Shown here in pieces: positions 1 to 50,026 of a stretch of 58,629 bases of DNA; position 1 is the stretch's first letter; each line of letters starts with the position of its first letter. This DNA comes from Halieaceae bacterium. Lineage in GTDB: Bacteria; Pseudomonadota; Gammaproteobacteria; Pseudomonadales; Halieaceae. The notes under the pieces were generated by a model, which worked only from the letters and a program-made list of their open reading frames with translations, ran no database searches and was not told where the DNA came from. Made by a program: the position numbers and the translations under genes. The stretch lies in contig JAQWLX010000012.1 of assembly GCA_029247075.1 (NCBI GenBank), positions 1 through 58,629 of the forward strand, read 5' to 3'.

Positions 1-1
1 C

Positions 2-199
2 AGTCGTCTTGAGCACGCAGCTCAAAACCTAACTAATGTCTCGGCGAATACCGCAGCATCAAGGAGTCGAATCCTCGATGCGGACTATGCGCGTCAGACT
101 ACAGAATTAGCCCGAACCCAGATCATTGCGCAGGCAGGAACTGCGATGCTGGCCCAGGCTAACCAGATCAAGCAGACAGTTTTATCACTACTTAAGTAG
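2..199 (+). CDS. fliC: flagellin, C-terminal fragment (5' end lies outside the window)
   Basis: Frame 2 reads [65 protein letters not shown] then TAG at 197-199. This is the conserved flagellin C-terminal D0 helix pattern. Confidence 0.9.
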
Positions 200-218
200 T
201 GAACGGTCCCCCTCCTGA

Positions 219-242
219 CCCGGCTTCGGCCGGGTTTTTTTT
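219..242 (+). terminator. Rho-independent terminator after flagellin
   Basis: GC stem CCCGGC (219-224), loop TTCG, GCCGGG (229-234), followed by a T8 run (235-242). It starts 20 nt after the flagellin stop. Confidence 0.85.
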
Positions 243-313
243 AATTTAAATCAATTAGTTATAGTAAAAATCTACTCTTTTGAAATAAAAACTAAAAAAA
301 TACACTTTTGCCC

Positions 314-340
314 TAAAGTTTTAATGAATAGTGTCGATTT
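314..340 (+). promoter_or_regulatory. sigma28 (FliA)-type promoter upstream of flaG
   Basis: TAAAGTTT (314-321) - 11 nt - GTCGATTT (333-340). The same geometry recurs at 3522, 28965 and 33409(-). Confidence 0.6.
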
Positions 341-450
341 CAGCTATGAGAAAAATTATTTCTGCCACTATGTATGGCAGTGCCCGCACGCGATTCGCTC
401 GGGAATAAAAGGGGGAGACCAGTTCAAACTGGTCCCAAAAGGTGTGAGAA

Positions 451-849
451 ATGGCTAGTATAGAGGGCACTATTGCGCCCGCATCAAGCATGGAAATAGC
501 GCAGGCTAATGCTTCACATAAAAGGACGGTAGAATCACTGCGTCCAGCGCCAGTTACTGGCAACGTATCAGCAATCAGTTCGAAGCAGAGAAGTTCCAGA
601 GCACAAAATATTTCTGAGATGCGAACTACTGAGGCGCAAATTCAGGATGCTTTAAATCGCCTAAGAGCGCATGCCAGGACACCCAAAAACCTTAACTTCC
701 GATTAGATCAGGTTTCTAATAGATGGATGGTTACGGTGAGGGATGAAAGTACTGGTAAGGTGGTAAGAGAAGTTCCTGGTGATGCTGTGCTTAAAGTAGC
801 GCACAATATAGAGAACTTGAAGGGAATACTGTTCGATCAGGTTCTGTAG
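451..849 (+). CDS. flaG: FlaG family flagellar protein
   Basis: 132-aa ORF directly after flagellin. The C-terminal half (LNFRLDQVSNRWMVTVRDESTGKVVREVPGDAVLKVAHNI) fits the FlaG pattern. SD AAGGTG lies upstream. Confidence 0.8.
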   Translation: MASIEGTIAPASSMEIAQANASHKRTVESLRPAPVTGNVSAISSKQRSSRAQNISEMRTTEAQIQDALNRLRAHARTPKNLNFRLDQVSNRWMVTVRDESTGKVVREVPGDAVLKVAHNIENLKGILFDQVL

Positions 850-941
850 GCTATACTTGTTTCACGATAGGTCGACTTTCGTGGAGAAAGAAGTAGTCTA
901 TTTTTCCGTGTAGCGTCCTAACGCATACGCGGAGAACTCTT

Positions 942-2633
942 ATGATTTTAAAAACGTTACGAGAATTGATCACTATTATATTTGTCGCTTGTTTAATTGG
1001 CGCTGCAATGTCCTTGGTGACCAATATGTTTGTCTCTGGTGTGGAAGCGGTTGGTGCACTTCGTGCTCAAGACACTTTTTTTAAGCTCGAGATTAAAGGT
1101 CAACTTTTCTCGGTTGGTAGCGTGGTTTTTCTTTGGATCACGGCGTTTGCAGTCTATTTTGTCAAGACATCACTCGGTATCAAGGCATGGGCTGGTCCTG
1201 CAGACTCGATTTATGCAGCTCATCAGAGTCGCGAACCCCTTGATCTAAAACGAGGATTTGGTTCGACTTTTGCCGCTTTTTTGTCGGCTAGTGGAGGAGC
1301 GGCGGTTGGTCAGTATGGTCCCCTTGTCCATTTTGGTGCCACAATGGGGGTATGGGTAAAGCGGTTTCTATCACCCTCCTTGTCTAATGAGGTCTATCTT
1401 GGCTGCGGTGTGGCCGCAGCGATATCAGCGGGATTCAATGCACCGATTGCTGGGATTATTTTTGCCCATGAGGCGATTCTTCGATTGTTTTCTATTCGCG
1501 CTGTTGCACCTATCTCTATTGCGGCAATTACTGCCAGCGCGGTGGATCGTTTTCTTTTCCCCAGTGACGTGACTTTTGCCATTGAAGCAGTTCTTCCGCC
1601 TTTGATTGAAATACTACCTGCTTTAATTGCCATCACCCCGATTTTGTCGCTGGTGGCTTTGGCATTCATGCTTTCGTTGCGCACCGCGCAGCGCACGGCG
1701 GCAAAATTTAGGGGACCTCCTTTTGTCCTTACTTTCTTGGCGGCTACATTGTGCGGTCTACTTGGTGTTTTTCTTCCCGATGTGCTTGGGCTTGGTATGG
1801 TTCAGATAAAACAAATGTTGTCGGGAGAATTCGCACTCAGCATGCTGGTTTTATTGCTCCTGGGTAAGCTTGTAGCTACTACCCTTTGTATTGGTTTTGG
1901 TTTGTTCGGAGGTGTTTTCGGTCCGGCAATTTTTATTGGTATTGCCGCGGGCGGTGTTTTAGGTGGTGTGGCAGAGGCGTTGGGACTTTCAAACTTTGCT
2001 CTTGTTGCAAGTGTTGCCTCTATGGCAGCGGTTAGTGCCTCAGTGATTGGTGCGCCCATCACTGCAACAATTATTATCCTTGAATTGACACAGTCTTATG
2101 AATTTGCCGTTGCCGCCATGGTAACTGTAATGTTATGTAATCTAATTACGCAGCGGGTTTTTGCTTTGTCTTTTTTTGATCGGCAGCTTTTGGATAGGGG
2201 TGTCGATTTGCGCGGCGGTCGCGAAGCGATTCATCTAAACCAAATTTTTTCATCGGAATTAGCCACCAACGATGGGATCGTTTTAGATAGCACTACTGAT
2301 GGGAATCAGGCAAGGGCTATACTAGAGGAAAGGTCACTGACAGAGGCTTACATTTGTGGAGAAGGCGGCGTGCTAATGGGTAAAGTGTCTCTTTTTCATA
2401 CCCTTAAAGCTCAAAATAACCCTGTAAAGGACTATATGGATACAGATCCTTTCTTTCTTTCTGGCACTGATACCCTTGCACATGCCATGTCAAAAGTGGC
2501 AAATTTCGTTGGAGAGAGCATACCAATAGTAGATAAGGAGACAGGTATCTTGATTGGAACTGTAACTGAAGGAGATTTGTTTAACGCGGTCATTGGGGTA
2601 CAAGGTGAGATAGTCAAGCAGGAGCGGGGCTAA
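942..2633 (+). CDS. ClC-family voltage-gated anion channel with C-terminal CBS pair
   Basis: 563 aa, polytopic. ClC blocks: GQYGPLVHFGA (cf. GREGPxVxxG), GFNAPIAGIIFAHE, GGVFGPAIFIG (GxFxP), GAPITATIIILELTQSY. C-terminal CBS-like segments (IPIVDKETGILIGTVTEGDL). SD GGAGAA before the ATG. Confidence 0.85.
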   Translation: MILKTLRELITIIFVACLIGAAMSLVTNMFVSGVEAVGALRAQDTFFKLEIKGQLFSVGSVVFLWITAFAVYFVKTSLGIKAWAGPADSIYAAHQSREPLDLKRGFGSTFAAFLSASGGAAVGQYGPLVHFGATMGVWVKRFLSPSLSNEVYLGCGVAAAISAGFNAPIAGIIFAHEAILRLFSIRAVAPISIAAITASAVDRFLFPSDVTFAIEAVLPPLIEILPALIAITPILSLVALAFMLSLRTAQRTAAKFRGPPFVLTFLAATLCGLLGVFLPDVLGLGMVQIKQMLSGEFALSMLVLLLLGKLVATTLCIGFGLFGGVFGPAIFIGIAAGGVLGGVAEALGLSNFALVASVASMAAVSASVIGAPITATIIILELTQSYEFAVAAMVTVMLCNLITQRVFALSFFDRQLLDRGVDLRGGREAIHLNQIFSSELATNDGIVLDSTTDGNQARAILEERSLTEAYICGEGGVLMGKVSLFHTLKAQNNPVKDYMDTDPFFLSGTDTLAHAMSKVANFVGESIPIVDKETGILIGTVTEGDLFNAVIGVQGEIVKQERG

Positions 2634-3487
2634 TGTCTTGCCGCTTTTCCTCGATTTTAGCTTTTGTTTTCTTAATTTCGTCAGCTTTTACTAGTGTTGA
2701 GTTAGAAGCGTCTCTGGAAGCTGGTATACGAGCCAAGGAACGTGGTCACTACGCGACTGCAATTCGTGCCTGGAAATCGCTAGCAAAAAAAGGAGATCCG
2801 CCGGCACAAAATAATATCGGCCACATGTACGAAGAGGGGCTAGGTGTCGCTCAAAACTACGCGGAGGCTATGAGCTGGTATAAAAAAGCCGCCGAAAGCA
2901 AGCTGCCAGAAGCTCAGTACAATGTAGGATTGCTTTATTATCATGGTTACGGTGTGGCGAAAAACCCCCGAGAAGCAATTAAATGGTTCAAATTATCTTC
3001 CAGAAAGAACCTTCCAGAGGCGCAGTACGTGATGGGTCTCGCGCATCACGAAGGAAAAGGCGTTCGCCTTGATTATAGGGAAGCCCTCTCGTGGTTTGCT
3101 AAATCGGCGAAGCAAAATCACCCGCCTGCTCAATTCATGTACGGTTTTATGTTTCAAGCAGCAGAAGGAATAGAGCCAGATCCCATGCGCGCCTATGCCT
3201 GGTCGAAATTGGCTGAGCTAAATAAGCAACCCGAGTCAGACGCAATTTACAATCTGGCTGCTCTGTCATTAGACAAAAAACAAATCTTGCAGGCGGAGGC
3301 AATTGCGAGCCTATGTTTTGGTTCTGCTTTGACGGATTGCCCTCTGCTTGAGAATGGCCCGTTAAAAGTGATTATCGATACTGATTCAGCGTCACCCCCT
3401 GAGACGAAAACTTCCCTCAAAGCTAGTCAACTTAAGGCCGCGGCTCAGGATGCTTACGAATCAATGGTCGAAAAACTAGGTTTATAA
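2633..3487 (+). CDS. secreted Sel1-repeat (SLR/TPR-like) protein; possible MotX-like stator/T-ring component
   Basis: Signal peptide (ILAFVFLISSAFTSVE). Tandem Sel1 units (AQNNIGHMYEEGLGVAQNYAEAMSWYKKAA; AQYNVGLLYYHGYGVAKNPREAIKWF; AQYVMGLAHHEGKGVRLDYREALSWF; AQFMYGFMF...). The ATG overlaps the ClC stop (TAATG). The Sel1 call is confident; the MotX assignment is inference only. Confidence 0.8.
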   Translation: MSCRFSSILAFVFLISSAFTSVELEASLEAGIRAKERGHYATAIRAWKSLAKKGDPPAQNNIGHMYEEGLGVAQNYAEAMSWYKKAAESKLPEAQYNVGLLYYHGYGVAKNPREAIKWFKLSSRKNLPEAQYVMGLAHHEGKGVRLDYREALSWFAKSAKQNHPPAQFMYGFMFQAAEGIEPDPMRAYAWSKLAELNKQPESDAIYNLAALSLDKKQILQAEAIASLCFGSALTDCPLLENGPLKVIIDTDSASPPETKTSLKASQLKAAAQDAYESMVEKLGL

Positions 3488-3521
3488 GTAAGAAAAACTT
3501 TCTTAAAAGGCTTCAGTCCCC

Positions 3522-3548
3522 TAAAGCGACGCGTTGATCGACCGATTT
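3522..3548 (+). promoter_or_regulatory. sigma28-type promoter upstream of fliS
   Basis: TAAAGCGA (3522-3529) - 11 nt - ACCGATTT (3541-3548), 40 nt before the fliS ATG. Confidence 0.5.
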
Positions 3549-3587
3549 ATAAGGCATTAAGCAATCGCAACAATAAGGCGTTTAGAC

Positions 3588-4007
3588 ATGAGCCCTAGAA
3601 ACAGACTCTTAGCAATGAACCAGTACAAGGGAGTGGATACAGGAGCTACCGCAGAGTATGCCGACGGTGTACAACTTATCCAAATGTTATTTTCTGCGCT
3701 CATGGATTCAATTAGTGATGCAGATGGCCATATACAGCGTGGCGACTTAGTCAAAAAGGGAGACAGTATCACTCGTGCCCAGAAAATTGTTAGCGGATTG
3801 CGACTTTCTCTAGACTTTGAACGAGGCGGTGAGCTGGCGCGAAATTTGGACGATCTTTATGAGTATGCTAATAGACGGCTCATTAACGCTAGTGCAAGTA
3901 ACGATGTTGAGGCGCTTAGAGAAGTCAAGGAAATCATCTCTGACATAAGTTCAGCCTGGCAGTTGATCCCGTCTCTCATGAAGCCTAGTGATACTGCAGC
4001 AGCTTAA
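3588..4007 (+). CDS. fliS: flagellin-specific export chaperone FliS
   Basis: 139 aa. LIQMLFSALMDSI...RAQKIVSGLRLSLDFERGGELARNLDDLYEYANRRLINA is the typical FliS four-helix pattern. Confidence 0.9.
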   Translation: MSPRNRLLAMNQYKGVDTGATAEYADGVQLIQMLFSALMDSISDADGHIQRGDLVKKGDSITRAQKIVSGLRLSLDFERGGELARNLDDLYEYANRRLINASASNDVEALREVKEIISDISSAWQLIPSLMKPSDTAAA

Positions 4008-4107
4008 TTTCATTTAACTTCGCATATAATACTGGCGCACTAGTTCCTCCCTAAATCTTCATATCATCGCGAGCTTCGCTCATATGTAATAGAATGAGTG
4101 GAGCGGC

Positions 4108-5193
4108 ATGTTTTTGCTGCTATTTGAAATTAGTTGGGAGAAACGCGAAATTAAGCTTCAGGATGTTGTATTTGGCGCCGCAATGAGAGAGATCTGGCAG
4201 ATTGTGGATGCGGCAGCAGCTAGTGATGCGCCCGTTATGATTCGCGGAGAGACTGGTGTAGGCAAAGAAGTGGCTGCGAGACAGGTTCATCAGCGCTCTG
4301 GCAGGGCCGGTGGCACGTTCGTGCCTATCAACTGCGGAGCAGTTCCATCAGAGCTCTTGGAAAGTGAGCTTTTTGGCCATCGAAAAGGTGCGTTTACAGG
4401 CGCTATCTCTGATCATAAAGGTCGGTTCGAGATTGCTGATGGTGGTACATTATTCCTTGATGAAATTGGAGATATGCCAGCGCATCTTCAGGTGAAAATC
4501 CTAAGAGTCCTTGAAGATAAGGCGATTACCCCTGTTGGCGCTATCCAAGAAACTGAGGTGAATGTAAGAATTATCGCTGCAACGCATCAGGATCTGGAGA
4601 AAATGATCCTGTCAGGTAGTTTTCGCGAAGACCTTTATTATCGACTCAATGTAATACCGGTTAATGTTCCACCGTTAAGAGAAAGGCGAGAAGAATTTGA
4701 TGATTTTCTCGATTTTTTTTCTAAGAAACATGCTGGTGAAAATGAGCGAATTACTTTCTCTTCTTTAACAAGGGAGCGACTCAGAGACTATCACTGGCCA
4801 GGCAATGTGCGTGAATTATCAAATCTGGTAGCACGCTTTAACGCGCTTTGGCCAGCATCGGAAATAGATATTTCGACTATCCCAAGGTCTATGTTGCCGC
4901 CTGGGATGAGATCTTCGCTCTCAGTTGGAGTCGATGCCTCCGCAAATATTGCATTGAATGACAGCCAAAGCGAGGTGGAAGCTATTATTGGACTTGCACA
5001 AGGCTGGCAGTCTGATAACGGAGAAAGAGACGGTGAGATAGAAATGCGGCAGATACTTCAAGATGTTGAATCGAAGCTTATATCTGCGGCTCTAGAAGAT
5101 TCAGATGGTAATGTTTCCGCTGCTGCCAAGCGGCTTAACATGCAACGGACAACATTAATTCAGCGGATTGCAAAGCTTGGGTTAAGAGACTGA
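4108..5193 (+). CDS. sigma54-dependent transcriptional activator lacking any N-terminal regulatory domain (AAA+ plus Fis-type HTH only)
   Basis: 361 aa. Walker A GETGVGKE begins ~45 aa from the start. GAFTGA loop (GHRKGAFTGA), Walker B LFLDEIG, WPGNVREL, C-terminal HTH NVSAAAKRLNMQRTTLIQRI. An in-frame TAG at 4090-4092 rules out N-terminal extension. Confidence 0.9.
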   Translation: MFLLLFEISWEKREIKLQDVVFGAAMREIWQIVDAAAASDAPVMIRGETGVGKEVAARQVHQRSGRAGGTFVPINCGAVPSELLESELFGHRKGAFTGAISDHKGRFEIADGGTLFLDEIGDMPAHLQVKILRVLEDKAITPVGAIQETEVNVRIIAATHQDLEKMILSGSFREDLYYRLNVIPVNVPPLRERREEFDDFLDFFSKKHAGENERITFSSLTRERLRDYHWPGNVRELSNLVARFNALWPASEIDISTIPRSMLPPGMRSSLSVGVDASANIALNDSQSEVEAIIGLAQGWQSDNGERDGEIEMRQILQDVESKLISAALEDSDGNVSAAAKRLNMQRTTLIQRIAKLGLRD

Positions 5194-18914: not shown

Positions 18915-20072
18915 ATGGCTGAAGAGAGTCAACAAGAAGACAAAACAGAAGAACCGACAGCGAAGCGTCTTGAAAAAGCAAGAGAGGAAGGCCAGGCCAT
19001 TCGTTCTCAGGATTTGAATGTTGCGGTCATGGTCATGATGGTTGTAATAACTATGTACGCCTTTGGTGGAGCACTAATAGATTCGTTACTGGAAGTATTC
19101 TCGAGAGGTTTTGTATTCGATAGAAGGTTGGTTTTTTCGGAGCAGTTATTCTCTGGCGTGGTCGGTACAGAGCTTAGAGATGCATTTTGGGTCATTGCAC
19201 CTATACTGGTACTAACTATTATTTTGGCCATTATTCCCTCAGCCACTCTGGGAGGGTTTATTTTTTCCTTCAAAGCTGTGGCACCTAAGCTTTCTAAATT
19301 AAGCCTCATTAATGGATTTAAGAGAATCTTTGGCACCAAAGCGCTCATAGAATTAGCTAAGGCAATTTTAAAATTCCTTCTCATAGGGTCATCGTTGTTT
19401 ATCGTCTATACGATGTATGCAAAAGATTTCATTTATTTGTCTGTGATGGCGATTAAGCCGGCGATTGAAAGTGCCGCCAACATGCTGTCGCTGGGAATGT
19501 TATTTGTCTGTATAAGTCTCATATTGGTAGCGTTAGTCGACGTGCCATACCAGATTGTCTCTTTTAAAAATCGCATGAAAATGACTAAACAGGAGGTCAA
19601 GGATGAACGCAAAGAGATGGAAGGACAGCCGGAGGTGCGAGCTCGTATAAAGCAACGCCAGCGCGATATGGCAATGCAATCAATGCTTGAAGCTTTACCT
19701 ACTGCAGACGTTGTTGTAACTAACCCTGAACATTTTGCAGTAGCACTTGCTTATGATCCTAATGGCAGTGATCCACCGAGAGTCGTAGCAAGGGGAGCAG
19801 ACTTCATGGCTTTACGTATTCGTGATCGCGCTACACAAGAAGGCATTTCGCTTTTTGAAGCTCCACCTTTGGCTAGGGCCCTGTATTTTACCACCGATGT
19901 TGGTAGTTTTATTCCTGAGGCGTTATATCACGCAGTCGCCCAGGTAATAGCTTATGTTTTTTCCATTGGAACATTTAGCGCTTCTGGAGAATATCAACGT
20001 CCCAAACCCAAAGTGCCACCTGAACTGGACTTCGATGAAACAGGTAAATTAAAGGATGAAGTCATTCAATGA
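18915..20072 (+). CDS. flhB: flagellar export switch protein FlhB
   Basis: 385 aa. N-terminal EEPTAKRLEKAREEGQ, four TM helices. The autocleavage region VVVTNPEHFAVALAYD reads NPEH instead of NPTH. Confidence 0.95.
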   Translation: MAEESQQEDKTEEPTAKRLEKAREEGQAIRSQDLNVAVMVMMVVITMYAFGGALIDSLLEVFSRGFVFDRRLVFSEQLFSGVVGTELRDAFWVIAPILVLTIILAIIPSATLGGFIFSFKAVAPKLSKLSLINGFKRIFGTKALIELAKAILKFLLIGSSLFIVYTMYAKDFIYLSVMAIKPAIESAANMLSLGMLFVCISLILVALVDVPYQIVSFKNRMKMTKQEVKDERKEMEGQPEVRARIKQRQRDMAMQSMLEALPTADVVVTNPEHFAVALAYDPNGSDPPRVVARGADFMALRIRDRATQEGISLFEAPPLARALYFTTDVGSFIPEALYHAVAQVIAYVFSIGTFSASGEYQRPKPKVPPELDFDETGKLKDEVIQ

Positions 20073-21565
20073 GCAACTCCGATATAGAAAATAACAAACA
20101 AAAAAAATCCATAGATAGCTGGATGGAAGGTGATATGTTGTTTTTGCGCGAGCAGGACAAGATGCAAATAAGCTCAATTCCAGTGCGTCTATCTCAGGAT
20201 AATCCCTACGTTGTTATATGTGGGCCCAAGGTGGATTTACTAAATTATTATTTTGAATATTTGTACGCGCAATTAAAGGGCAGTGACCAATATGAGCTAG
20301 AAGTATTTTTTTCTGTAACTACAGATGCTCTGCTGGATTTTTACAACAAGCGCCTAGCAGATATTAGCGTAAATGCAGCGAAAAGTGCGACTGATTCCGA
20401 GTTATATAGAAAAATTTTAGTCATCAGTGATTGTACTGGTATGGCTAAAAACGAGTGGGATTTACTGGCTAGGCTGCTGATTGATTTTCCGGGTGCAAAC
20501 TGTGGTGTATTAATAATATGCGAGGAACCTTTCAACCAACAAGTGGAAGCATTTTTTAAACTTTTAGGTTCTCGTTTGACGCGCTGTTATTGTAATTTTC
20601 CAGATACTCGTGAGCTTGTTAGTTTTCTAGATGCATCTTCTGTGACCCCCTATCATTCTCACAATAAGAAAACATTAGCTGCTTTGGGGATAACAGGAGC
20701 AGATCTAGAAGTAGATCACTCAAAAAGTCATTCAGAGGAAAGTGATGCGGATATTTCTCCGGAGGCTTCAGGAGAAAAGAAATTTAATAAGTTTCTATTC
20801 TTTACCTTTGTTCTTGTTTTGGTTGTCGCTTTTGGAGTTGCTTACCTATTAAATCATGATAACGATACTGACTTTGAGGTGGTCGATCAAACTATCGCTA
20901 ATGATGATAATGATTCAATTTTAGCTCAAAAAGATCGAGATCAGTTGACCACCAAAGAAAGTGGCAATCATTTATCGGATGCTGTAATTGAAGAGGAAAT
21001 GGAAGAAATCATTTCGTTCTCGGAGGGAAATATTGCCGTCCAGATGGTTGGTTTGTCTAAGGAAGAGGATGTTGTCGAGTCTCAAATTAAGGAATTAAAC
21101 ACGAATGACCCAATAAATGAAGTTGCATTTGAAGAGCAAGCTGAAACGGTAGAAGAAGATATATCATCTATAACGGTTGATGCAATCTCGTTGTCCGAGG
21201 ACTCACAAGAGGTTGAAGAGGTTAATGAGCAAATTTTGGAAGAGCAAGATGATGATTTATCCAAAGACAAGATTGAGTCTTCGATCGATATTGCAGCCTA
21301 TTACCTGCAGCATGCGGCGTTGAGTTCTGAGTCTGCTGCAAACACAGCCGCAAGAGAAGCCTTTACTAATTTTTCAACCGCATTTTCACTGCCACAGTTT
21401 TCGCAAGCAAAACTCTGGCATGTAGTTTTTTCTGGGCCTTATGCTACGCGTACAGAAGCTATGAATGTTGCTAAAGAAAATGGGGTGACTGCCGATGTTG
21501 TCATAGTAAGAGGAACGTATGTGGCTTCCAGAGTTCCTTCCGAGGTAGAAGATGACGGAAGGTGA
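20069..21565 (+). CDS. bitopic protein: degenerate P-loop-like N-terminal domain, TM helix, acidic linker, C-terminal SPOR-like peptidoglycan-binding domain
   Basis: 498 aa. The ATG overlaps the flhB stop (ATGA). VVICGPKVD sits at the Walker A position and ILVISD at Walker B. TM FLFFTFVLVLVVAFGVAYLL. The C-terminus YYLQHAALSSESAANTAA...LWHVVFSGPYATRTEAMNVAKENG resembles DamX/FtsN SPOR domains. Confidence 0.6.
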   Translation: MSNSDIENNKQKKSIDSWMEGDMLFLREQDKMQISSIPVRLSQDNPYVVICGPKVDLLNYYFEYLYAQLKGSDQYELEVFFSVTTDALLDFYNKRLADISVNAAKSATDSELYRKILVISDCTGMAKNEWDLLARLLIDFPGANCGVLIICEEPFNQQVEAFFKLLGSRLTRCYCNFPDTRELVSFLDASSVTPYHSHNKKTLAALGITGADLEVDHSKSHSEESDADISPEASGEKKFNKFLFFTFVLVLVVAFGVAYLLNHDNDTDFEVVDQTIANDDNDSILAQKDRDQLTTKESGNHLSDAVIEEEMEEIISFSEGNIAVQMVGLSKEEDVVESQIKELNTNDPINEVAFEEQAETVEEDISSITVDAISLSEDSQEVEEVNEQILEEQDDDLSKDKIESSIDIAAYYLQHAALSSESAANTAAREAFTNFSTAFSLPQFSQAKLWHVVFSGPYATRTEAMNVAKENGVTADVVIVRGTYVASRVPSEVEDDGR

Positions 21566-21875
21566 AATCTACCGAAAATCTGGCGAAAATGAAAAAATCG
21601 GTAGTATTTCAGGAAGCCCTATTGAAAAAACACTTCCTCTTGATAACTCAGTTACCCTGGATTATCCCGCAAGTGAAGATAAAGATATTGAGGAAGCTGC
21701 GGAGTCTAAGGCTTTACAAGACATTCCGGATACTAGAGCAAAACTATTAATGCAAGGCAAAGCACGCTTTCCGGTTTCAGAAGATGTGTCAGTCGGCCCC
21801 TTTGCAGAGCGCATAAAGAAATTGCGAAGCACGGTGGCTTCAATAATGGAGAATTTGCGGAGCACTAAGGGATAG
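21552..21875 (+). CDS. small hydrophilic acidic protein of unknown function
   Basis: 107 aa. 14-nt overlap with the preceding gene. No TM helix and no motif I recognise. Confidence 0.5.
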   Translation: MTEGEIYRKSGENEKIGSISGSPIEKTLPLDNSVTLDYPASEDKDIEEAAESKALQDIPDTRAKLLMQGKARFPVSEDVSVGPFAERIKKLRSTVASIMENLRSTKG

Positions 21876-21886
21876 AGGATTTTATT

Positions 21887-22870
21887 TTGGCGGATGAAGA
21901 AGAAAAAATTGTAGAAGCTGATTCTGAAACTGAAGAGACTCTCGATGATCAGGGATCGCAAGTCTCTGAAGCGAGTGAAGGATCTGAAGCGGAAGCCGAA
22001 GAGTCCACAGAAGTAAATGACCAAGATTCCGACCTCAACAATGAAGAAACGAACTCCGCCGAAGATATAACTGAGGTTATAATGACGGGTGCTGAAGTTA
22101 TTAGTCAACTAGAAGGCTTAATACCGACGGCGCTTGATGCGGCTGAGGCATCTACTTCAGCTAGTGAAGCAAGCCTGAGCACCATGAGACGTTTGTCGTT
22201 GACGCAGACTGAACTTGATGGAAGGCTGGAAAGAAATAACCTGCTTTTTGCGCAACAGTCTAACCAAATTAAGCTTATATTAGCTGCCGTGAGCTCGGTA
22301 TTAGCTGTGGCCGTCATGGTTTTCATTTTTATGATAATTCAACTTTCTTCAAGAGTTTCTGAGGTAGATGCTTTGGTCATGGCGGTTACAAAGCGAGTAG
22401 TGAAAATGAATCAAAGTTTGGAGCTATTTGAAGAACTTCAGTTTGATATTCGTATCTTAGCGGAAAAACAAGCTAACGCTACTTTGAAATATGAAGGCCT
22501 TGAAGAAGTAGTAATGGGAGCTTCAAATACCTTGGTAGAGCTTAAGTCAGATCTTCCGGCGGCTACTGCGACCAGTGTTTCTACAGAAGTGAGTGAAGTT
22601 AACAAAGAGATAGAGCAGCTTCAGCAGACTCTCACCACCCAACGCAGCACGGTATCCGATTTGTCTGGGTCGATAAAAAGGCTAACGAATACTGTTGGTG
22701 CTATGCAGGGAAAGATGACAAATCTATATTCTCTAGAAAACCAAGTAGAGGCTTTGGTTACATTAACTAGAGAACGATATCTTGACGTACTAGAGAAGAA
22801 GAATGATGCCGTAGAAGATGAAGTCGAGCTTGAAGAGCCTTCTGATATTGTTTTGTACAAGGCAGATTAG
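21887..22870 (+). CDS. single-pass membrane protein with acidic N-terminus and long coiled-coil C-terminal region, unknown function
   Basis: 327 aa. TTG start 12 nt after the previous stop. D/E/S-rich first ~70 aa. TM LILAAVSSVLAVAVMVFIFMIIQL. Heptad-like remainder. Confidence 0.55.
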   Translation: MADEEEKIVEADSETEETLDDQGSQVSEASEGSEAEAEESTEVNDQDSDLNNEETNSAEDITEVIMTGAEVISQLEGLIPTALDAAEASTSASEASLSTMRRLSLTQTELDGRLERNNLLFAQQSNQIKLILAAVSSVLAVAVMVFIFMIIQLSSRVSEVDALVMAVTKRVVKMNQSLELFEELQFDIRILAEKQANATLKYEGLEEVVMGASNTLVELKSDLPAATATSVSTEVSEVNKEIEQLQQTLTTQRSTVSDLSGSIKRLTNTVGAMQGKMTNLYSLENQVEALVTLTRERYLDVLEKKNDAVEDEVELEEPSDIVLYKAD

Positions 22871-22887
22871 ATTAATAAACATTGTCA

Positions 22888-23475
22888 TTATTTGCCCATA
22901 GCACTAATTAACCCTTGGGAAAAATCTCCGGGGAATGGTAATTTAGCTTGGTCAAAAAGAGCAGCAATAGAATCATCGATGCTCATCCGTAATCGATCCT
23001 GGTCGCTCTTTTCATCCGTATTTGCTAGCTCGTATCCCGAATTGTAAAGCACAGCGCAATGCTCAGAAGGTAGCCATGATTGCACCGCTCCTCGCAGAGT
23101 ATTTATCGAATCTAAATTCCCCGGATTTTTTTTTATGCCACCGCTTTGTGAATCTGAATAACCTGATTGAAGGAGAATTTGTATATGTTTTTTTAGGATA
23201 ATTTCATAACGCTGCCTAACTGTTTCAATATTTTCTGCTTCGATATCAGTGTTTCTGCCCGTCAATGCATCCCATAATTCTTTTCCTTGCAAATCGTCGC
23301 TATTTTCTGAAGGGTTTTTTTTATTTCCTGATGCAGGTTCTATCGAAGATTTATTTTTGCTTTGTAGTATGCTCCTCGTAACCTCTTCGAGCTTACCCAT
23401 ACGGCCAATAATATAAAGTAGTAGTATTATTATTGCCAAGCCAGTAGCCAACATTAGTGTGAAGCTTACTGACAT
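22888..23475 (-). CDS. membrane-anchored protein of unknown function (downstream partner in the fliA operon)
   Basis: The track ORF runs to 23580. The likely start is ATG 23475 (MSVSFTLMLATGLAIIILLLYIIG), sharing TAATG with the upstream stop. 195 aa with an N-terminal TM. Confidence 0.55.
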   Translation of the reverse strand: MSVSFTLMLATGLAIIILLLYIIGRMGKLEEVTRSILQSKNKSSIEPASGNKKNPSENSDDLQGKELWDALTGRNTDIEAENIETVRQRYEIILKKHIQILLQSGYSDSQSGGIKKNPGNLDSINTLRGAVQSWLPSEHCAVLYNSGYELANTDEKSDQDRLRMSIDDSIAALFDQAKLPFPGDFSQGLISAMGK

Positions 23476-23990
23476 TAACTGGCTTTCTCTGCAGTATCTT
23501 CTTCTTGATCTTCCAGACCTAATTCTGTAGCAAGAAAGCGAAGGCATTGTAAACTTTGAGCAACACCTAACTCTTCCCAAATCTCATCCGCAATAGCTTG
23601 AACTTTTTCAATAGCTTTTTCTCCGGAAATTTCCATAGTCTGATAGAGCCCGGCAATTAAGAAGATCTTGTCTGCGGGCTCCTTAGGTAGATAAGCAAAA
23701 AAGTTACCAGTATTAGTCTTTATGACCTTAAATAGCGCTGGTTCGGGTGGTTCAGGTTTTGTTTCTCCTTGTGCGATTGCCTGCAGGCAAAGGTGGTCAT
23801 AAATTTCCGCCTTTTTGGCTCCTTCGATAAAAGTTAGGTCAATGTGTGAACGTGTTCTAAAGGCTATTCTAGACCTTAGCGCTCTATCTACGCGTTTATC
23901 TTCCTTAATTGCGTCGAGAATTTTTTCAAACTCTCCTTTGGCCTGTGCCATGGCCCTTTGGTTGCCTTTTGATCTTGAGAAAAGAGACAT
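23475..23990 (-). CDS. cytoplasmic protein of unknown function immediately downstream of fliA
   Basis: 171 aa, starting 14 nt after the fliA stop. No recognisable motif. Confidence 0.55.
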   Translation of the reverse strand: MSLFSRSKGNQRAMAQAKGEFEKILDAIKEDKRVDRALRSRIAFRTRSHIDLTFIEGAKKAEIYDHLCLQAIAQGETKPEPPEPALFKVIKTNTGNFFAYLPKEPADKIFLIAGLYQTMEISGEKAIEKVQAIADEIWEELGVAQSLQCLRFLATELGLEDQEEDTAEKAS

Positions 23991-29592: not shown

Positions 29593-30750
29593 ATGAGTGA
29601 TCCCAGAGGGTATAAAAATTGGCTCAGGTTAGTGTCCACCCTGATTTTTTTCGTGTTTTTTTTCGGAGGGTACGCCTATGCGGATGATAAATTATCTGCG
29701 GAGGAGAGATTGGAAGCCTTACGTCAGTCCTTACTAGACGAGGCGTTGAGCGGTGAAATAGACATTGTGTCAAGTGCTTATGTAGGCTCAGATGGCCAAA
29801 TGCATGAGTCGGCCTATATTACTGCAAATAAGTCTGTTCGAGGTGTTAGGGTAGTAGGGTACGTGAATCCGGAGCCTTCCAGTTCGCCTGCTCCACCCCG
29901 CCGGCGTTCAAAGGATAACTGTGTCTCAAAACGTTACCGTCCCCAGTTGGTTGTTTCGGCGATTCCCCGTGGCAATCCAAACACTAGAGTGGGTTCGGTT
30001 TACTTAAGTGCTGTGGTATCTGAGACGCGTGAAAAATTACTAGAAAATCTAAGAAATAATTCACAAGTGGTTGTTGTAGAAAGTGATGAGGGTTTGTATG
30101 AAACAGAATATGACGCGATCCTAGCACGAGTCGACCAAGGAGTCGGTTCTTATAAGCTAAATGTGGAAATCGGTTTAAGCACTACTCAAGCCGGGAAAAT
30201 TGACAAAGGGATTTACCAGGCAGGTAAAGCAGCGAATAGCATTTGGCAATATGTTCCGTTCTTTAACGTTTACCGAGGATCTCCGGCAAATATAGCTGGA
30301 GGTATAAACTACAAACTTAAAGTAAACCAGGTAGACCAGCCCAAAATAGTATTTGCTGCAAATGAAGAAATTAGTTTTAGGAGTGAGCCAGAGCCAACTC
30401 GAGCTACGGTTTTGCCGAGTAAGCTTCGAGAAGAAATCAGGGGATCAGTTGGAGATATCCTTGAAGAAGTTTTGGGCGGCTTGCTATGCGAGCCTGAAAG
30501 AATCGTCACACGACGTGCCCAAGACGGAACATACTCGTTGCTTGCTGGACAAGCAGCGGGAGTAACTTCTGGTGATCAGTTTATTTTAGTGAGGACGGCG
30601 ATCTGGGATCGTGACCGACTTGATATTAACGATGTTGCGGAATTGGCGTTAGCGAGAGTGGAGTTTGTCTATAAAAATGAGTCGGCGATTAAAGTGATCG
30701 CCGGACCGAATGCCCCAGATTCCGGAAGTCTCATAGCCATACCATTTTGA
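29593..30750 (+). CDS. secreted protein of unknown function; possible FlgT/FlgO-like outer ring component (context and size only)
   Basis: 385 aa. N-terminal signal/anchor (LVSTLIFFVFFFGGYAYA). Follows the flgP-like gene in the same sigma28 operon. No motif I can name with certainty. Confidence 0.45.
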   Translation: MSDPRGYKNWLRLVSTLIFFVFFFGGYAYADDKLSAEERLEALRQSLLDEALSGEIDIVSSAYVGSDGQMHESAYITANKSVRGVRVVGYVNPEPSSSPAPPRRRSKDNCVSKRYRPQLVVSAIPRGNPNTRVGSVYLSAVVSETREKLLENLRNNSQVVVVESDEGLYETEYDAILARVDQGVGSYKLNVEIGLSTTQAGKIDKGIYQAGKAANSIWQYVPFFNVYRGSPANIAGGINYKLKVNQVDQPKIVFAANEEISFRSEPEPTRATVLPSKLREEIRGSVGDILEEVLGGLLCEPERIVTRRAQDGTYSLLAGQAAGVTSGDQFILVRTAIWDRDRLDINDVAELALARVEFVYKNESAIKVIAGPNAPDSGSLIAIPF

Positions 30751-30760
30751 GGTGATAGAT

Positions 30761-31174
30761 ATGAATTCTTGGAAATATTGTTTTGCGTGCCTTGTCTTCT
30801 TGTTACCGATTAATCTAGCGGCAGGAAACGATTCGGTGGACAGTGCTCTGGCAACTTTGCTGGGTACAGATGTTGCCAATGGGAAGGCAGTTAAAAAGCA
30901 ATCTGGAAGCTATGGGTCTACCTATAACGTCCGTCGCGGAGATACCCTCGACGCAATCATAAGACAAAGTTTTAATACTTCAAAAATCCGAAGACCGATT
31001 ATTCGTCAGGCATTTGTTAAGGCAAATCCAGGTGTATTCCGTCGAGGAAATCCTAATTGGATGTATGCTGGTAAGGTGTTGACCATGCCAGAGGTTAAAG
31101 ATTTTCAGAAAGCTATTTTTGTGGATGGTGCCCCGACTGCTAGCGGCAAACGTGATTGGGTTAGTTATCCTTAA
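30761..31174 (+). CDS. secreted FimV/HubP-type LysM domain protein
   Basis: The track start is GTG 30752. ATG 30761 follows GAGGTG. Signal peptide. YNVRRGDTLDAIIRQ...AFVKANPGVFRRGNPNWMYAGKVLTMP resembles the FimV N-terminal LysM. Confidence 0.65.
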   Translation: MNSWKYCFACLVFLLPINLAAGNDSVDSALATLLGTDVANGKAVKKQSGSYGSTYNVRRGDTLDAIIRQSFNTSKIRRPIIRQAFVKANPGVFRRGNPNWMYAGKVLTMPEVKDFQKAIFVDGAPTASGKRDWVSYP

Positions 31175-36341: not shown

Positions 36342-39290
36342 ATGTCATTTTATACCTCATTAACAGGATTAAACGCAGCCACTACCGAGCTTGCGGTAAC
36401 CTCAAACAACATTGCTAACGCCGGAACCTCCGGTTTTAAACGATCCGATGCTGACTTCGGTGACATTTTCGCAACGTCACCTTTGCAGCGTGCGGCGAGT
36501 GTGATCGGTGCCGGGGTATCGCTTAAATCGGTGTCTCAGGAATTCAGTCAGGGAAACATTGAGTTTTCAGCGAACTCTCTGGACCTGGCGATTACCGGTG
36601 ACGGTTTCTTCGCATTGGAATCTCCAGACGGTACCAAGATATTTACGCGTAACGGTGGTTTTATGCTCAACGAGCAAAACCAGATGGTTAACGCGGCGGG
36701 TCAGGCCTTGATGTCATTGCCGGTTGACTCGACAAATACTGCGGATTTTAGTGCGCCTCTGACTGCGATGACAATTCCAAGACAAACGGTTGCAGAATTT
36801 AGAGCGACTACTAGCGTGGAGTTGGGTCTTAACCTGCCATCTACTAGCGAGCCGATTACAGAAATCTTTAATCCGAATAATCCAGAGACTTACCACAAAA
36901 CAACTTCTTTGACGGTGTATGGAGCTTCAGGTTCGAGCCACCTTGCAACGATTTACTATGTGAAGACCGGAGAAGCCACAGCGGCTGATCCATTCAACAA
37001 ATGGCAGACGCACGTTTACATTGATGATCAAAAGGTGACACCTCGCCTGATTCAGTCCGCTGATACTGCGGGTGATAAATATTACGTTAACAAGTACGGA
37101 GAATTGAAAACTGAGTTGGAATTATTGGCGTTGCAGCGAACCAGTGCAGAAAGTGAAAAATATTTGATTACGACCGGTACGCAGTACAAGAAATATTCTT
37201 ACGATCAATTGTCAACTCCGATCAACTCGCAGCCCGCTGCGGTTGAAATGAAGATACCGGCCACATCGCCTTATACCGATAACTTGAATCTGACAAATAA
37301 CCAGGACGGTGTGGACTTTTCAACTTTTACACGAGCAAATTTGAAAGACATGTTTAATCTAAGCATTGATGGCTCTCCATTAGTATCGATAGGTTTAGAG
37401 CATTTAGCGGGAGATGCGCTTAAGCTTTCAGGTAACCAGATCGCGTTTGAACTCCAGAATGTTTTAAACAGCCGTTTCGGGGATGGAAAACGTTTTGATT
37501 TTGGTGCTGCGGCGACTGATGCTGAAGCCGCGCTAGGGAAAATAACGTTATATCGAGAAGCTCCCGTTTGGACAGGGGCGGCATGGTCAGTCCCGAAAAA
37601 TATCACCTTAGATCTTAGGGCACTTGTCGCGGCAGCGGGCGCAACTTACAACGTTGATGCCAATGGTGAGGTTCCTCCAGAGGAACTTGCCGAGATAATC
37701 ACAACCGCACTTGATGCGAACGCTGCATCTGGTAACAAAGATTTTGAGGACATAGAAGTAATCTATGACTACGAGAATCTGGGTTTCCGGTTTACACAAG
37801 GCGGGACCAAAAAAGATAATATATACGTCGCAAGCACAGCCGGGTCGGGAACTAATTCCTTGTTCGGTGTCAAAGAAATCACTGTTCCGACTGGCGGTGA
37901 TGTTGCAGAAGATAACCCGCCAACTTACGGCACGCTACTGCCTCCGCTCGATAGCAACCAGGCAATCACTTTATTAGGCAACGTCCTTCCAAATGGAACT
38001 GGGGAACGTGCTTTAGCTGACCAACGCTATGGCCTTCAGGTGTCATATGCGGACGGTCAGTTTAATATCACGTCGGGCCAAACCGGTGATACATCCAGTA
38101 TCCAGGTGACAGTAAATAGTACGACTGCTGGAACCCCTCCCGTTACAACTTTGAGCCCGGCTTCACTGTTAGCAACAGATTTGCTAGGGATTAATGCAAA
38201 CGGACATGAAGTTTCTCCGCAGGTCTCGACGATAGCGAACTTACCTACAATACGTGGTCAGGCATCACAGGCTGCGGTAGTTCATGGTGGTCCGATGGGG
38301 GTTGATCCCTCAGCATCTTTCGCGGTGACACCAGCTAATAGAACATTAACCTGTATTGTCGATGGTATTTCTTCCCAGATTACGCTGACAGAAGGTCAGT
38401 ACTCGATCGGAACCTTCACAACGCACTTACAGGAAAAGATTAACCTGATGGCGGACGGTCTTGGACGAAGTGTATCGGGCATTACCGTCGGGTTTGATGA
38501 TGCCACCGAGCAACTAATTGTTACAGGTGGTACAGCTAAGTCAGATTCATTTATCCAGATCGCAGGTTCTTCAGACTGGGGACTTGATAACGTAGAAGCC
38601 GCGTTTGCAAAGGTATCAACCTACATTCAGTTGTATCCAGATCAACAGGGAAGTGCTGATGTTTACGTTGCACAGGACACTGACGGAAATTGGGAAGAGA
38701 CTACCGATAAAGGTGAATTTGATGAACAGGACATTCCTTATTGGACACCGATCTTCTTGGATCGTGGTGAGCTGACCTTTGATACATCGGGTACCTTGGT
38801 ATCACCGATGGGCGGTGCAGAACTTCAAAGTGATGGCATCACCGGAACATCAATTGCGGTCGCGTACGATGGAAGTACTCAGTTTAACAGCCCCTTCGCT
38901 GTATTAAGTCAGAACCAGAATGGTGCGGCTGAAGGAGATTTGGTTGGCGTTAACATCGGCGATAACGGATTGGTGGTTGCCAGTTATTCAAACGGATCCC
39001 AGAAGTCTCTCGGTAAGATCATTATTGCGAACTTTGCCACGCCGAAAGGTCTGCGTCAGATTGGTGATGCGAGCTTCTTCGCGACCTCTGAATCTGGCGA
39101 AGCGGCATACGGAGAACCCGGTGCGGCAGGTTTCGGAACACTGAGAGCCGGTGCACGAGAAAGATCAAACGTGGACTTGACCGGTGAACTGGTTGACCTA
39201 ATCACTGCGCAACGGAACTTCCAAGCTAATGCCAAGGCGATTGAGACGAGTTCTTCGTTGACGCAAACCATCATTAATATCCGCGGATAA
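36342..39290 (+). CDS. flgE: flagellar hook protein FlgE, giant form
   Basis: 982 aa. N-terminus MSFYTSLTGLNAATTELAVTSNNIANAGTSGFKRS. C-terminus SNVDLTGELVDLITAQRNFQANAKAIETSSSLTQTIINI. A ~600-aa central insertion. Confidence 0.93.
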   Translation: MSFYTSLTGLNAATTELAVTSNNIANAGTSGFKRSDADFGDIFATSPLQRAASVIGAGVSLKSVSQEFSQGNIEFSANSLDLAITGDGFFALESPDGTKIFTRNGGFMLNEQNQMVNAAGQALMSLPVDSTNTADFSAPLTAMTIPRQTVAEFRATTSVELGLNLPSTSEPITEIFNPNNPETYHKTTSLTVYGASGSSHLATIYYVKTGEATAADPFNKWQTHVYIDDQKVTPRLIQSADTAGDKYYVNKYGELKTELELLALQRTSAESEKYLITTGTQYKKYSYDQLSTPINSQPAAVEMKIPATSPYTDNLNLTNNQDGVDFSTFTRANLKDMFNLSIDGSPLVSIGLEHLAGDALKLSGNQIAFELQNVLNSRFGDGKRFDFGAAATDAEAALGKITLYREAPVWTGAAWSVPKNITLDLRALVAAAGATYNVDANGEVPPEELAEIITTALDANAASGNKDFEDIEVIYDYENLGFRFTQGGTKKDNIYVASTAGSGTNSLFGVKEITVPTGGDVAEDNPPTYGTLLPPLDSNQAITLLGNVLPNGTGERALADQRYGLQVSYADGQFNITSGQTGDTSSIQVTVNSTTAGTPPVTTLSPASLLATDLLGINANGHEVSPQVSTIANLPTIRGQASQAAVVHGGPMGVDPSASFAVTPANRTLTCIVDGISSQITLTEGQYSIGTFTTHLQEKINLMADGLGRSVSGITVGFDDATEQLIVTGGTAKSDSFIQIAGSSDWGLDNVEAAFAKVSTYIQLYPDQQGSADVYVAQDTDGNWEETTDKGEFDEQDIPYWTPIFLDRGELTFDTSGTLVSPMGGAELQSDGITGTSIAVAYDGSTQFNSPFAVLSQNQNGAAEGDLVGVNIGDNGLVVASYSNGSQKSLGKIIIANFATPKGLRQIGDASFFATSESGEAAYGEPGAAGFGTLRAGARERSNVDLTGELVDLITAQRNFQANAKAIETSSSLTQTIINIRG

Positions 39291-47306: not shown

Positions 47307-47319
47307 TGGATAAATACTA

Positions 47320-49105: not shown

Positions 49106-50026
49106 TTATTCAGATTTACGATGTTCTCTAGCAAGTTCTAAAATAGCCTTTGCATGCTCTTCGCTTATATCATATCGCTTGCGAAGATCTTCTAAATGTT
49201 CCTCTTCTGTTGCAGTCACTTCTCCATCTTCTAGTGCATGCGCCACTTCCGCTTTAAATATTTCTTTCCGCCTAGCCATCTGATTAGAAAAAGCGGTGGC
49301 GACTATACCTGTTAATAAAGCGACAGTAAGCACTCCCATCATTGCTGTCGCAGCTCCCACAAACTTTCCGGCTATGGTGATTGGTGATACATCTCCATAG
49401 CCGACGGTGGTAAGTGTGATAATTGACCACCACATTGCATGTGGTATTGAACTGAATACTTCCGGTTGAACCTCATTTTCGATTAGATAGATTAGGGTGC
49501 TGGCAATGAAAAACGCAATCGTAAATAGATAAAAGGCAGCGGCAAAAGTGCCTCGTTCATCTCGGATTGCTGAAAAAAGATCCTCCAGTGCGGTGGAGTA
49601 GTGAGAAATTTTAAACAGACGTAGCATTCTCATTACCCTTAGCCATCTAAGGTCAACGCTGGTCATAACGAGTGCAGCGATGCTCGGCAGTATTGCTAGC
49701 AGATCGATCAAACCATGACCGCTGAGAATATATGCCATCCGTTTTTCTAAAGGTCCAGCATCTGGCATATCTTCGCGAGCAGGAGCGCACCAAATTCTGA
49801 GACAGTATTCGATGCTAAAAATAAATACAGAAAATATTTCAAAAACAAAAAACTCTTTCGAATAGGCAGCATTTATACTTGAAACTGACTCAAGAGAAAT
49901 GGCTATCAGATTAAGGATAATTAAGCTACCGAGGATAATGTCACATATTCTGCTTGCTTGGCTCGTATGCGCTCCACCTTTCTCTAAGATCTTGTAAATT
50001 CGAACTTGTGTGGGTGAGGAAGCCAT
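49106..50026 (-). CDS. voltage-gated (Kv-type, 6TM) potassium channel
   Basis: 306 aa. S4-like LRWLRVMRMLRLFKISH. Selectivity filter TTVGYGD. Confidence 0.88.
   Translation of the reverse strand: MASSPTQVRIYKILEKGGAHTSQASRICDIILGSLIILNLIAISLESVSSINAAYSKEFFVFEIFSVFIFSIEYCLRIWCAPAREDMPDAGPLEKRMAYILSGHGLIDLLAILPSIAALVMTSVDLRWLRVMRMLRLFKISHYSTALEDLFSAIRDERGTFAAAFYLFTIAFFIASTLIYLIENEVQPEVFSSIPHAMWWSIITLTTVGYGDVSPITIAGKFVGAATAMMGVLTVALLTGIVATAFSNQMARRKEIFKAEVAHALEDGEVTATEEEHLEDLRKRYDISEEHAKAILELAREHRKSE

Follow-up and report, generated by a model that had tools for sequence, protein, structure and literature searches.

A CLC-family protein with tyrosine at the gating position and a Sel1-repeat partner encoded in polar flagellar gene clusters of marine Gammaproteobacteria

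The stretch of DNA analysed here, referred to as the window, comprises 58,629 nucleotides (nt) of the forward strand of contig JAQWLX010000012.1 (assembly GCA_029247075.1) from a Halieaceae bacterium, and holds a polar-type flagellar gene cluster in which a CLC-family protein (ClC) and a Sel1-repeat protein are encoded back to back. Although their loci have been rearranged many times, ClC and Sel1 remain neighbors of late flagellar or stator genes. ClC itself belongs to a large natural CLC subfamily that holds a Tyr at the external gating glutamate (Glu_ex) and an Ala or Val at the internal proton-transfer glutamate (Glu_in), has lost the central Ser, and keeps the equivalents of E202, F357 and Y445 of ClC-ec1 together with a pair of CBS domains. 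The reading preferred here, to which a probability of roughly 0.45 is assigned, is that both genes could constitute a two-gene module of polar flagellar clusters of the Na+ type (PomAB), by descent and probably by function, in a clade of uncultured marine Gammaproteobacteria. An initial annotation of this DNA had called the arrangement undescribed, and no earlier account of it, of a ClC in a flagellar cluster, or of a natural Tyr at Glu_ex was found in the literature.

Association of ClC and Sel1 with flagellar and stator genes

The pair and its immediate neighbors are organized in the window as follows:

451–849, + strand: flaG (Pfam FlaG, 2.2e-17)
942–2633, + strand: ClC, Tyr-type CLC-family protein of 563 residues with a C-terminal CBS pair (Pfam Voltage_CLC, 3e-60; CBS, 5.6e-9; ClC-ec1, 1e-22)
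2620–2635, + strand: AGGAG ribosome-binding site (2620–2624) and TAATG stop/start overlap from ClC to Sel1, read directly from the sequence
2633–3487, + strand: secreted Sel1-repeat protein of 284 residues (Pfam Sel1, 4.6e-36)
3588–4007, + strand: fliS (Pfam FliS, 1.6e-32; TIGR00208, 83 bits)

The stop codon of ClC (TAA, 2631–2633) and the start codon of Sel1 (ATG, 2633–2635) have one base in common, with the AGGAG sequence 9 nt upstream, and the pair is translationally coupled. Both the position of ClC between flaG and fliS and the overlap at 2631–2635 had been proposed in the initial annotation, and the coordinates, the gene calls and the sequence bear them out. Over 37 loci, the gap between both genes ranges from −14 to +146 nt, with about half of the gaps being 3 nt or shorter.

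A metagenome scan based on the Sel1 alignment provided 42 orthologue loci (L020–L061) and 38 generic Sel1 loci as controls, whose neighbors were mapped by tblastn, while a contig scan with a single ClC protein provided six loci, its peptide patterns being specific to the query. Clear flagellar genes, usually including PomA/PomB-type stator genes, are found in 39 of the 42 Sel1-orthologue loci, which extends the proposed flagellar linkage of the pair to other genomes. ClC lies immediately upstream of Sel1 in 24 of the 36 informative loci, and the other 12 hold Sel1 without ClC; either gene also occurs without the other. With all loci pooled, clustering divides the Sel1 orthologues into 41 groups at 90% identity and 21 at 70%.

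The order flaG–ClC–Sel1–fliS–fleQ recurs in a single-cell genome with 92% ClC identity (L001/L008), in contigs with 60% identity that encode flagellins of 1186 residues (L002–4), and in contigs with 52% identity (L009/L010). Across lineages, the ClC/Sel1 loci exhibit at least six gene orders:

Type A, flaG–ClC–Sel1–fliS: window, L001–4, L009/10, L041
Type B, flagellin–flaG–ClC–Sel1, convergent with pomB–pomB–pomA, then fliD–flgL–flgK: L014, L026–29 and others
Type C, flagellin–(flaG)–Sel1 adjoining pomB–pomB–pomA, without ClC: L016, L021, L048
Type D, two sigma-54 activators divergent from ClC–Sel1–fliS–Kv, then pomB–pomB–pomA: L022, L038, L043
Type E, pomA–pomB–Sel1–fliS on one strand: L051, L052, L054, L055
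Type F, Sel1–fliS–Kv adjoining pomB, on contigs that end before the region upstream of Sel1: L024, L025
Type G, divergent fliS–ClC–Sel1: L058–61

The stator beside Sel1 is PomA-like (331 bits with the NCBIfam PomA model vs. 192 bits with that of MotA), and its operon holds PomA and two long PomB-like paralogues of 394–416 residues (L014 10837–14813; L016, L023, L028–32, L038, L043, L048, L059). At these same stator loci, a divergent gene with an Lcl_C domain (PF07603) is almost always found beside pomA, and its product may be another motor accessory.

Tyr-type ClCs with only 35–39% identity to the window protein also have flagellar neighbors, and wherever tblastn and Pfam allowed a decision, Sel1 is lacking there:

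L100: fliS–x–ClC–x–fliS–fleQ–fliE–fliF
L105: flagellin, then ClC–fliS with a 4-nt gap
L102: ClC convergent with flhB–fliR–fliQ–fliP–fliN

Some homologues are labelled as Porticoccaceae or Pseudomonadales, an assignment of the carriers that rests on a few record titles, and abundant coastal bacterioplankton seem to be among these carriers.

Residues and family of the Tyr-type ClC

ClC is a member of the CLC superfamily by its Voltage_CLC (PF00654) score, 204.6 bits vs. a cutoff of 24.8. Its AlphaFold2 (AF2) model is of moderate confidence, with a mean predicted local distance difference test (pLDDT) value of 71.8, and the top Foldseek matches of this model are CLC-2, AtCLCa, CLC-7, CLC-K and ClC-ec1 (E ~1e-15). 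The secondary structure of the model contains two beta–alpha–beta–beta–alpha units at residues 437–562, which correspond to the CBS pair. Residues were mapped by phmmer against the ClC-ec1 chains of the PDB and by a family-profile alignment containing ClC-ec1, with the following result:

1191–1205, + strand: A84-G-P-A-D88, equivalent to S107-G-I-P-E111 of ClC-ec1, with the central Ser replaced by Ala (family-profile alignment)
1308–1322, + strand: GQYGP, equivalent to GREGP, with Tyr125 (codon 1314–1316) at Glu_ex (E148) and Gln124 at R147 (phmmer and profile alignment)
1461–1478, + strand: FAHEAI, equivalent to FIIEEM, with E177 as the kept E202, A178 in place of Glu_in (E203), and H176, specific to the Tyr-type group (phmmer and profile alignment)
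1908–1925, + strand: GGVFGP, equivalent to GGIFAP (GxFxP), with F326 as the kept F357 (phmmer and profile alignment)
2082–2099, + strand: ELTQSY, equivalent to EMTDNY, with Y386 as the kept central Tyr, Y445 (phmmer and profile alignment)
2424–2594, + strand: second CBS motif of the cytoplasmic CBS pair (Pfam CBS, residues 495–551)

Most of what had been read by eye from these blocks is therefore sustained by alignment. Both methods place Tyr125 and Ala178 at the gating and internal positions, so that the comparison with S107, E148, E203 and Y445 of ClC-ec1 yields no Glu at either of them, and both align F326 and Y386 to F357 and Y445. The GSGIPE block, which had been described as degenerate, has indeed lost the central Ser, but its Asp turns out to be ordinary. 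In the profile alignment S107 corresponds to A84, G108 to G85, I109 to P86, P110 to A87 and E111 to D88, a register that is fixed because members of the sister group read GIPDVI or GIPQVM, while the pairwise phmmer alignment runs one residue out of register. The Asp of the GPAD sequence was considered as a substitute gating carboxylate and discarded, since the family profile assigns it to E111, the Glu of GSGIPE.

The substitutions are a property of a whole family. A HMMER search of 1.84 billion cluster representatives provided 683 relatives at E ≤ 1e-30, and residues were counted in the best 150 of these 683 (50% clustering), of which 141 cover the Glu_ex site. This site is occupied by Tyr in 105 of the 141 representatives, by Glu in 34, and by Leu and Phe in one each, with identities down to ~30%. 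Among the best 120 homologues (52–100% identity), the motifs GQYGP, xGPAD(S/T), FAHEA(I/V) and ELTxSY are kept in all 119 full-length sequences. Since GQYGP is kept in these 119 close homologues and Tyr predominates among the representatives, the Tyr at the gate is not the product of decay or chance, and the invariance of the motifs together with the size of the family rules out that ClC is a pseudogene. In the Tyr-type group, E202 is invariant, E203 is replaced by Ala or Val, and R147 mostly by Gln. The position of I201, H176 in the window, is a His in 97 of the 105 Tyr-type representatives, whereas the Glu-type sister group mostly has Leu there. At the position of the central Ser, most relatives hold a His, and the window protein an Ala.

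Compared with ClC-ec1 (ClcA, the Cl−/H+ exchanger of E. coli), the window protein has the same fold and pore scaffold, with a TM-score of ~0.7 normalised to ClC-ec1 and the equivalents of E202, F357 and Y445. Unlike ClC-ec1, it replaces Glu_ex by Tyr, Glu_in by Ala, S107 by Ala and R147 by Gln, bears a C-terminal CBS pair, and is encoded in a flagellar operon instead of belonging to acid-resistance physiology. Glu_ex has been described as critical, E202 as conserved in all CLCs, and Val as the Glu_in residue of CLC channels, while a few exchangers are known without a dissociable Glu_in (Lim et al., PMC3519907). The Glu_in position is channel-like in the Tyr-type group, with Ala in the window protein and Val in 55 of the 105 Tyr-type relatives. 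At the central site, the Ser is missing and the Tyr is present. Tyr at Glu_ex and a weak similarity to CLC-F chains (E 1e-5) separate the protein from the CLC-F fluoride/H+ antiporters, which possess Glu_ex and are usually controlled by a fluoride riboswitch, and no fluoride riboswitch or other Rfam family scored above its gathering score within positions 1–4200 of the window.

Neutralisation of Glu_ex leads to H+ uncoupling in the CLC exchangers studied so far. Because Glu_ex is lost, an uncoupled, channel-like behavior can be expected, and a ClC that acts as a channel rather than as an exchanger is a reasonable inference from the residues. Prokaryotic CLCs with solved structures are all transporters according to a 2025 survey (bioRxiv 10.1101/2025.07.07.663545).

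The closest parallels among eukaryotic CLCs are the complexes with accessory subunits: CLC-K/barttin, CLC-7/OSTM1 and ClC-3/TMEM9. The likenesses to this type are a non-protonatable gate residue, a small hydrophobic residue at Glu_in, CBS domains, and the genetic pairing with a small extracytoplasmic partner, as in eukaryotic CLCs with beta-subunits; CLC-K lacks the gating Glu as well. However, the window protein is bacterial, holds a Tyr instead of Val or Leu, and has as its partner a predicted soluble periplasmic Sel1 solenoid instead of a membrane protein, with which it is paired through gene position, and either gene can occur by itself.

The Sel1-repeat protein, expression signals and the rest of the window

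The partner of ClC is a Sel1-like repeat protein, with 122.4 bits for Sel1 (PF08238) vs. a cutoff of 30.7 and an alpha-solenoid fold. Its AF2 model (pLDDT 90.5) is a confident all-helical solenoid spanning approximately residues 40–230, and the top Foldseek matches are generic Sel1 proteins (4e-11). Forty-six orthologues were aligned, which are 44–96% identical and about 232–285 residues long. All begin with a hydrophobic segment resembling a Sec signal peptide, contain four or five Sel1 repeats, and have two invariant cysteines near the C-terminus, Cys228 and Cys236. A C-terminal extension of ~45 residues (237–284) is restricted to the window protein and its closest relatives.

The initial annotation had likened this protein to MotX, the T-ring subunit of Vibrio and Shewanella, which is periplasmic, contains a disulphide and is needed together with MotY for recruitment of the PomAB stator. 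Orthology was rejected: the NCBIfam model NF047621 gives 21.7 bits vs. a cutoff of 330, lower than MerG, AlgK and ExoR; MotX chains of the PDB (8z5n_C, 9yfg) reach 33–35 bits with the Sel1 family profile vs. 343 bits for generic Sel1 proteins; and MotX (8z5n_C) is ranked 34th by Foldseek, with 15% identity. Other features are compatible with a MotX-like protein, namely the signal-like N-terminus, the two invariant cysteines and the adjacency to pomAB in relatives. The resemblance thus lies in being a small periplasmic Sel1-like repeat protein tied to Na+-type PomAB stators, which for MotX is an association established by experiment (PMC7990780, PMC6375700) and here is one of gene adjacency. 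Unlike MotX, the Sel1 protein is encoded in or adjoining stator and late-flagellar operons, usually coupled to ClC, and no MotY or FlgT was detected; motX of Vibrio is a stand-alone gene.

Na+ stators are accompanied by extra periplasmic rings (PMC6375700), and in other bacteria stators are recruited or stabilised by alpha-solenoid repeat proteins confined to particular lineages, PflA/PflB in Campylobacter and FlcA/BB0236 in Borrelia (PMC7990780). The Sel1 protein shares with them the alpha-solenoid repeat architecture and the restriction to a lineage, and has a faint match to the C-terminal NCBIfam model of FlcA (21 bits). On the other hand, it has no specific sequence relationship to them, lineage and cluster context differ, and any role in the motor is putative.

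Regarding expression, three elements around the pair stand out:

314–340, + strand: sigma-28-like promoter upstream of flaG, TAAAGTTT-N11-GTCGATTT (motif and spacing)
847–941, + strand: structured flaG–ClC spacer with two hairpins, the second of which (902–936) buries the ClC Shine–Dalgarno sequence GGAG (931–934) (minimum free energy −39.7 kcal/mol, z = −6.1)
3522–3548, + strand: sigma-28-like promoter upstream of fliS (motif and spacing)

The motif TAAAG-N15-(G/C)(T/C)CGAT(T/A)(T/A) is found at five sites of the window with identical spacing, before flaG (314), fliS (3522), the flgP-like gene (28965), flgM and flgA, vs. two matches in 253 kb of control loci. An equivalent of the fliS site also separates Sel1 from fliS in L001, L002, L009, L010, L025, L037, L041, L043 and L047. 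In 29 loci, a strict regular expression for this promoter matched nothing ahead of ClC or Sel1, whereas a position weight matrix finds strong sites directly before ClC in L039, L042, L053, L056 (15.2 bits), L043 (11.5 bits) and L044 (10.4 bits). Because the same matrix finds no site directly before the ClC of the window, and no G+C-rich terminator was called in the spacer that separates flaG from ClC, transcription of ClC by read-through from the flaG promoter is likely. The core of hairpin 2, GCGUCCUAACGC, is invariant, and the pairing of its outer stem is kept despite base changes in L001 and L106, a comparison of three sequences only; this hairpin may be a translational or processing element. 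In one lineage, the space between flaG and ClC is occupied by a gene for a GT41 glycosyltransferase of 794 residues (L009 7269–9653, − strand), which likely reflects a flagellin-glycosylation context.

The remaining features of the window that are referred to below, or that frame the pair, are:

2–196, + strand: 3′ end of a flagellin gene (tblastn vs. the flagellin of L014, 78% identity over 65 residues; stop codon 196–198)
217–236, + strand: strong intrinsic terminator behind the flagellin gene (8-bp stem with six G-C pairs, then a T-run)
46101–48759, + strand: flgL (46101–47306; Pfam Flagellin_N), then the relocated fliD (47320–48759; FliD_N/FliD_C)
49106–50026, − strand: Kv-type voltage-gated K+ channel, directly after fliD (Pfam Ion_trans, 4e-33; Kv1.3, 2e-28)

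The Kv channel bears a TTVGYGD selectivity filter and the Arg repeat of S4. Its orthologues adjoin fliS or pomB in L016/17, L024, L025, L038, L043, L058 and L059, so that several of these flagellar clusters have conserved a second ion channel besides ClC. The displacement of fliD to a position behind flgL, as initially reported, is evident from the coordinates, and the order flgK–flgL–fliD is also found in L014, L016, L023, L028–32, L048 and L059. FlgL (46734–47198) and FliD (47677–48189) have in common a segment of 171 residues with 43% identity, which suggests a domain inserted into or exchanged between neighboring axial proteins. Other axial proteins are giant, such as FlgE with 982 residues and FlgK with 993 (window 36342–39290 and 43100–46081), as well as the above-mentioned flagellins of the 60%-identity relatives (L002 1–7217).

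Downstream of fliS, two sigma-54 activators are followed by fliE through fliO, and the remainder of the window forms a flagellar cluster of the polar type including fliA, flhF, flhG, flhA, flgM, flgN and flgA. The initial annotation had also pointed to outer-ring candidates, of which a FlgP-like gene can be called weakly (LPP20, 24.5 bits vs. a cutoff of 25.9), but no NCBIfam model for FlgT, FlgO or MotY is matched by the unannotated open reading frames (ORFs), and MotY was found in none of the flanks. Several ORFs inside the cluster (29593–31174 and 20069–23990) have no or a weak family match and are candidate lineage-specific motor or polarity components: one of 385 residues behind the flgP-like gene, a LysM/FimV-like one of 140 residues, one of 498 residues with a SPOR domain, and two of 230 and 171 residues on the minus strand.

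Competing explanations and meaning of the association

The main rival to a module tied to the flagellum by function is genomic hitch-hiking, which is regarded as possible although less probable than the module. Under this explanation, the Tyr-type ClC would serve anion homeostasis in general, possibly with Sel1 as an accessory subunit in the periplasm; its gene would have been captured in an ancestral flagellar cluster and kept there by inertia, with no role in motility. A number of observations weigh in its favor and against a functional module. A locus with dctMQ, an M48 peptidase and yaaD holds ClC–Sel1 (L018/19) or ClC alone (L005–7, L012), and no flagellar genes lie within 8 kb of these ClC loci; because all motifs are intact there, at least ClC must be useful without adjacent flagellar genes. 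A neighbor-joining tree places these ClCs within the flagellar type-D clade, which is what survival after the loss of their flagellar neighbors would produce, and the M48–yaaD flank is common to type-D clusters (L038 17137–18621, L043 17724–20137) and to the non-flagellar loci (L018 5028–11541, L005 7262–12145). The simplest reading is that the flagellar island disappeared step by step while ClC, accompanied by Sel1 or not, was spared. Both genes are separable, as ClC occurs without Sel1 in L005, L012, L100, L102 and L105 and is missing from one third of the Sel1 loci. For many ClCs with 52–56% identity, the context is not assignable by similarity, since flagellar and non-flagellar types interleave, and one GRYGP-type relative lies among stress genes on a short contig. 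In the window itself, ClC has no dedicated flagellar promoter, the spacer hairpins could attenuate read-through or ClC translation, and pomAB was not found. What argues against mere inertia is that the association has outlasted rearrangement into at least six architectures and reaches down to 35–40% identity, always beside late or stator genes, that sigma-28-like sites lie directly upstream of ClC in several lineages, and that Sel1 is repeatedly found in or adjoining the pomAB operon even where ClC is lacking.

Two further explanations concern one of the proteins each. ClC might still be a coupled transporter, or might carry another substrate such as nitrate or a different oxyanion, with Tyr125, His176 and E177 in place of the canonical glutamates. 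This is thought improbable, even though exchangers with a non-dissociable Glu_in are known and E202, present in all CLCs (PMC3519907), has its invariant equivalent here in E177, His176 co-varies with Tyr125, and the central-site Ser, which influences anion selectivity, is replaced. Against this explanation stand the critical nature of Glu_ex (PMC3519907), the fact that a Tyr is not protonatable near physiological pH, and the lack of any fluoride riboswitch or other Rfam element and of nitrate or nitrite genes nearby. The least probable of all explanations is that the Sel1 protein is the MotX of this lineage, an ordinary Vibrio-like T-ring gene beside an irrelevant transporter. It would account for a Sel1 fold like that of MotX, whose sequence and structure matched the Sel1 profile and fold, for the signal-like N-terminus and the cysteines, for the adjacency to or shared operons with PomA/PomB-type stators, and for the weak flgP-like gene of the window. 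However, it is contradicted by the model, profile and Foldseek scores given above and by the non-detection of FlgT, FlgO and MotY, and it leaves unaccounted that translational coupling is the commonest state of ClC and Sel1 and that the pair persists outside flagellar loci.

The module reading, by contrast with these alternatives, would assign a role to each component. Lacking a protonatable gating residue, ClC would be unable to run Cl−/H+ exchange and would provide an H+-uncoupled, channel-like anion pathway gated via its cytoplasmic CBS domains. In the window it would be transcribed with flaG from the sigma-28-type promoter, as part of the late flagellar class. The Sel1 protein would be exported, stabilised by a disulphide and placed as a periplasmic adaptor at the stator, in a manner analogous, though not orthologous, to MotX, PflA/PflB and FlcA. 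ClC and Kv would then tune the membrane potential and the ion balance, and through them the sodium-motive force powering the motor of very small cells. That channels set the membrane potential that drives the Na+ motor is speculative, although a role of this kind is attractive because Kv is conserved in several of the same clusters. Two considerations count against it as well: an open Cl− conductance would depolarise the cell at a normal resting potential, so its physiological logic is not obvious, and the bulky Tyr could plug the pore instead of opening it. The most specific version of this idea is an "electrical" module within the flagellar regulon, formed by an H+-uncoupled CLC anion channel of the Tyr type, Sel1 as a periplasmic beta-subunit or adaptor docking ClC to the PomAB stator ring, and Kv, which would together set the local membrane potential and sodium-motive force and hence the speed or stopping of the motor; in this full form it is considered a long shot.

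How a single CLC fold gives rise to both channels and exchangers is an unresolved question (bioRxiv 10.1101/2025.07.07.663545), and a large natural clade in which the gate is a Tyr, a His co-varies next to E202 and the central Ser is missing represents an unexplored natural experiment for CLC biophysics. If true, a periplasmic Sel1 protein peculiar to this lineage and linked to PomAB would be another independently recruited stator scaffold, and the two channel genes kept in flagellar clusters, ClC and Kv, would open the connection between membrane electrophysiology and motor output to genetic tests. Should the electrical reading be true, it would provide the first CLC channel and the first CLC accessory subunit from bacteria, and the first ion channels shown as flagellar components. 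The conserved presence of ClC–Sel1 in flagellar clusters points to a possible, hitherto undescribed connection of ion channels with the flagellar motor driven by sodium.

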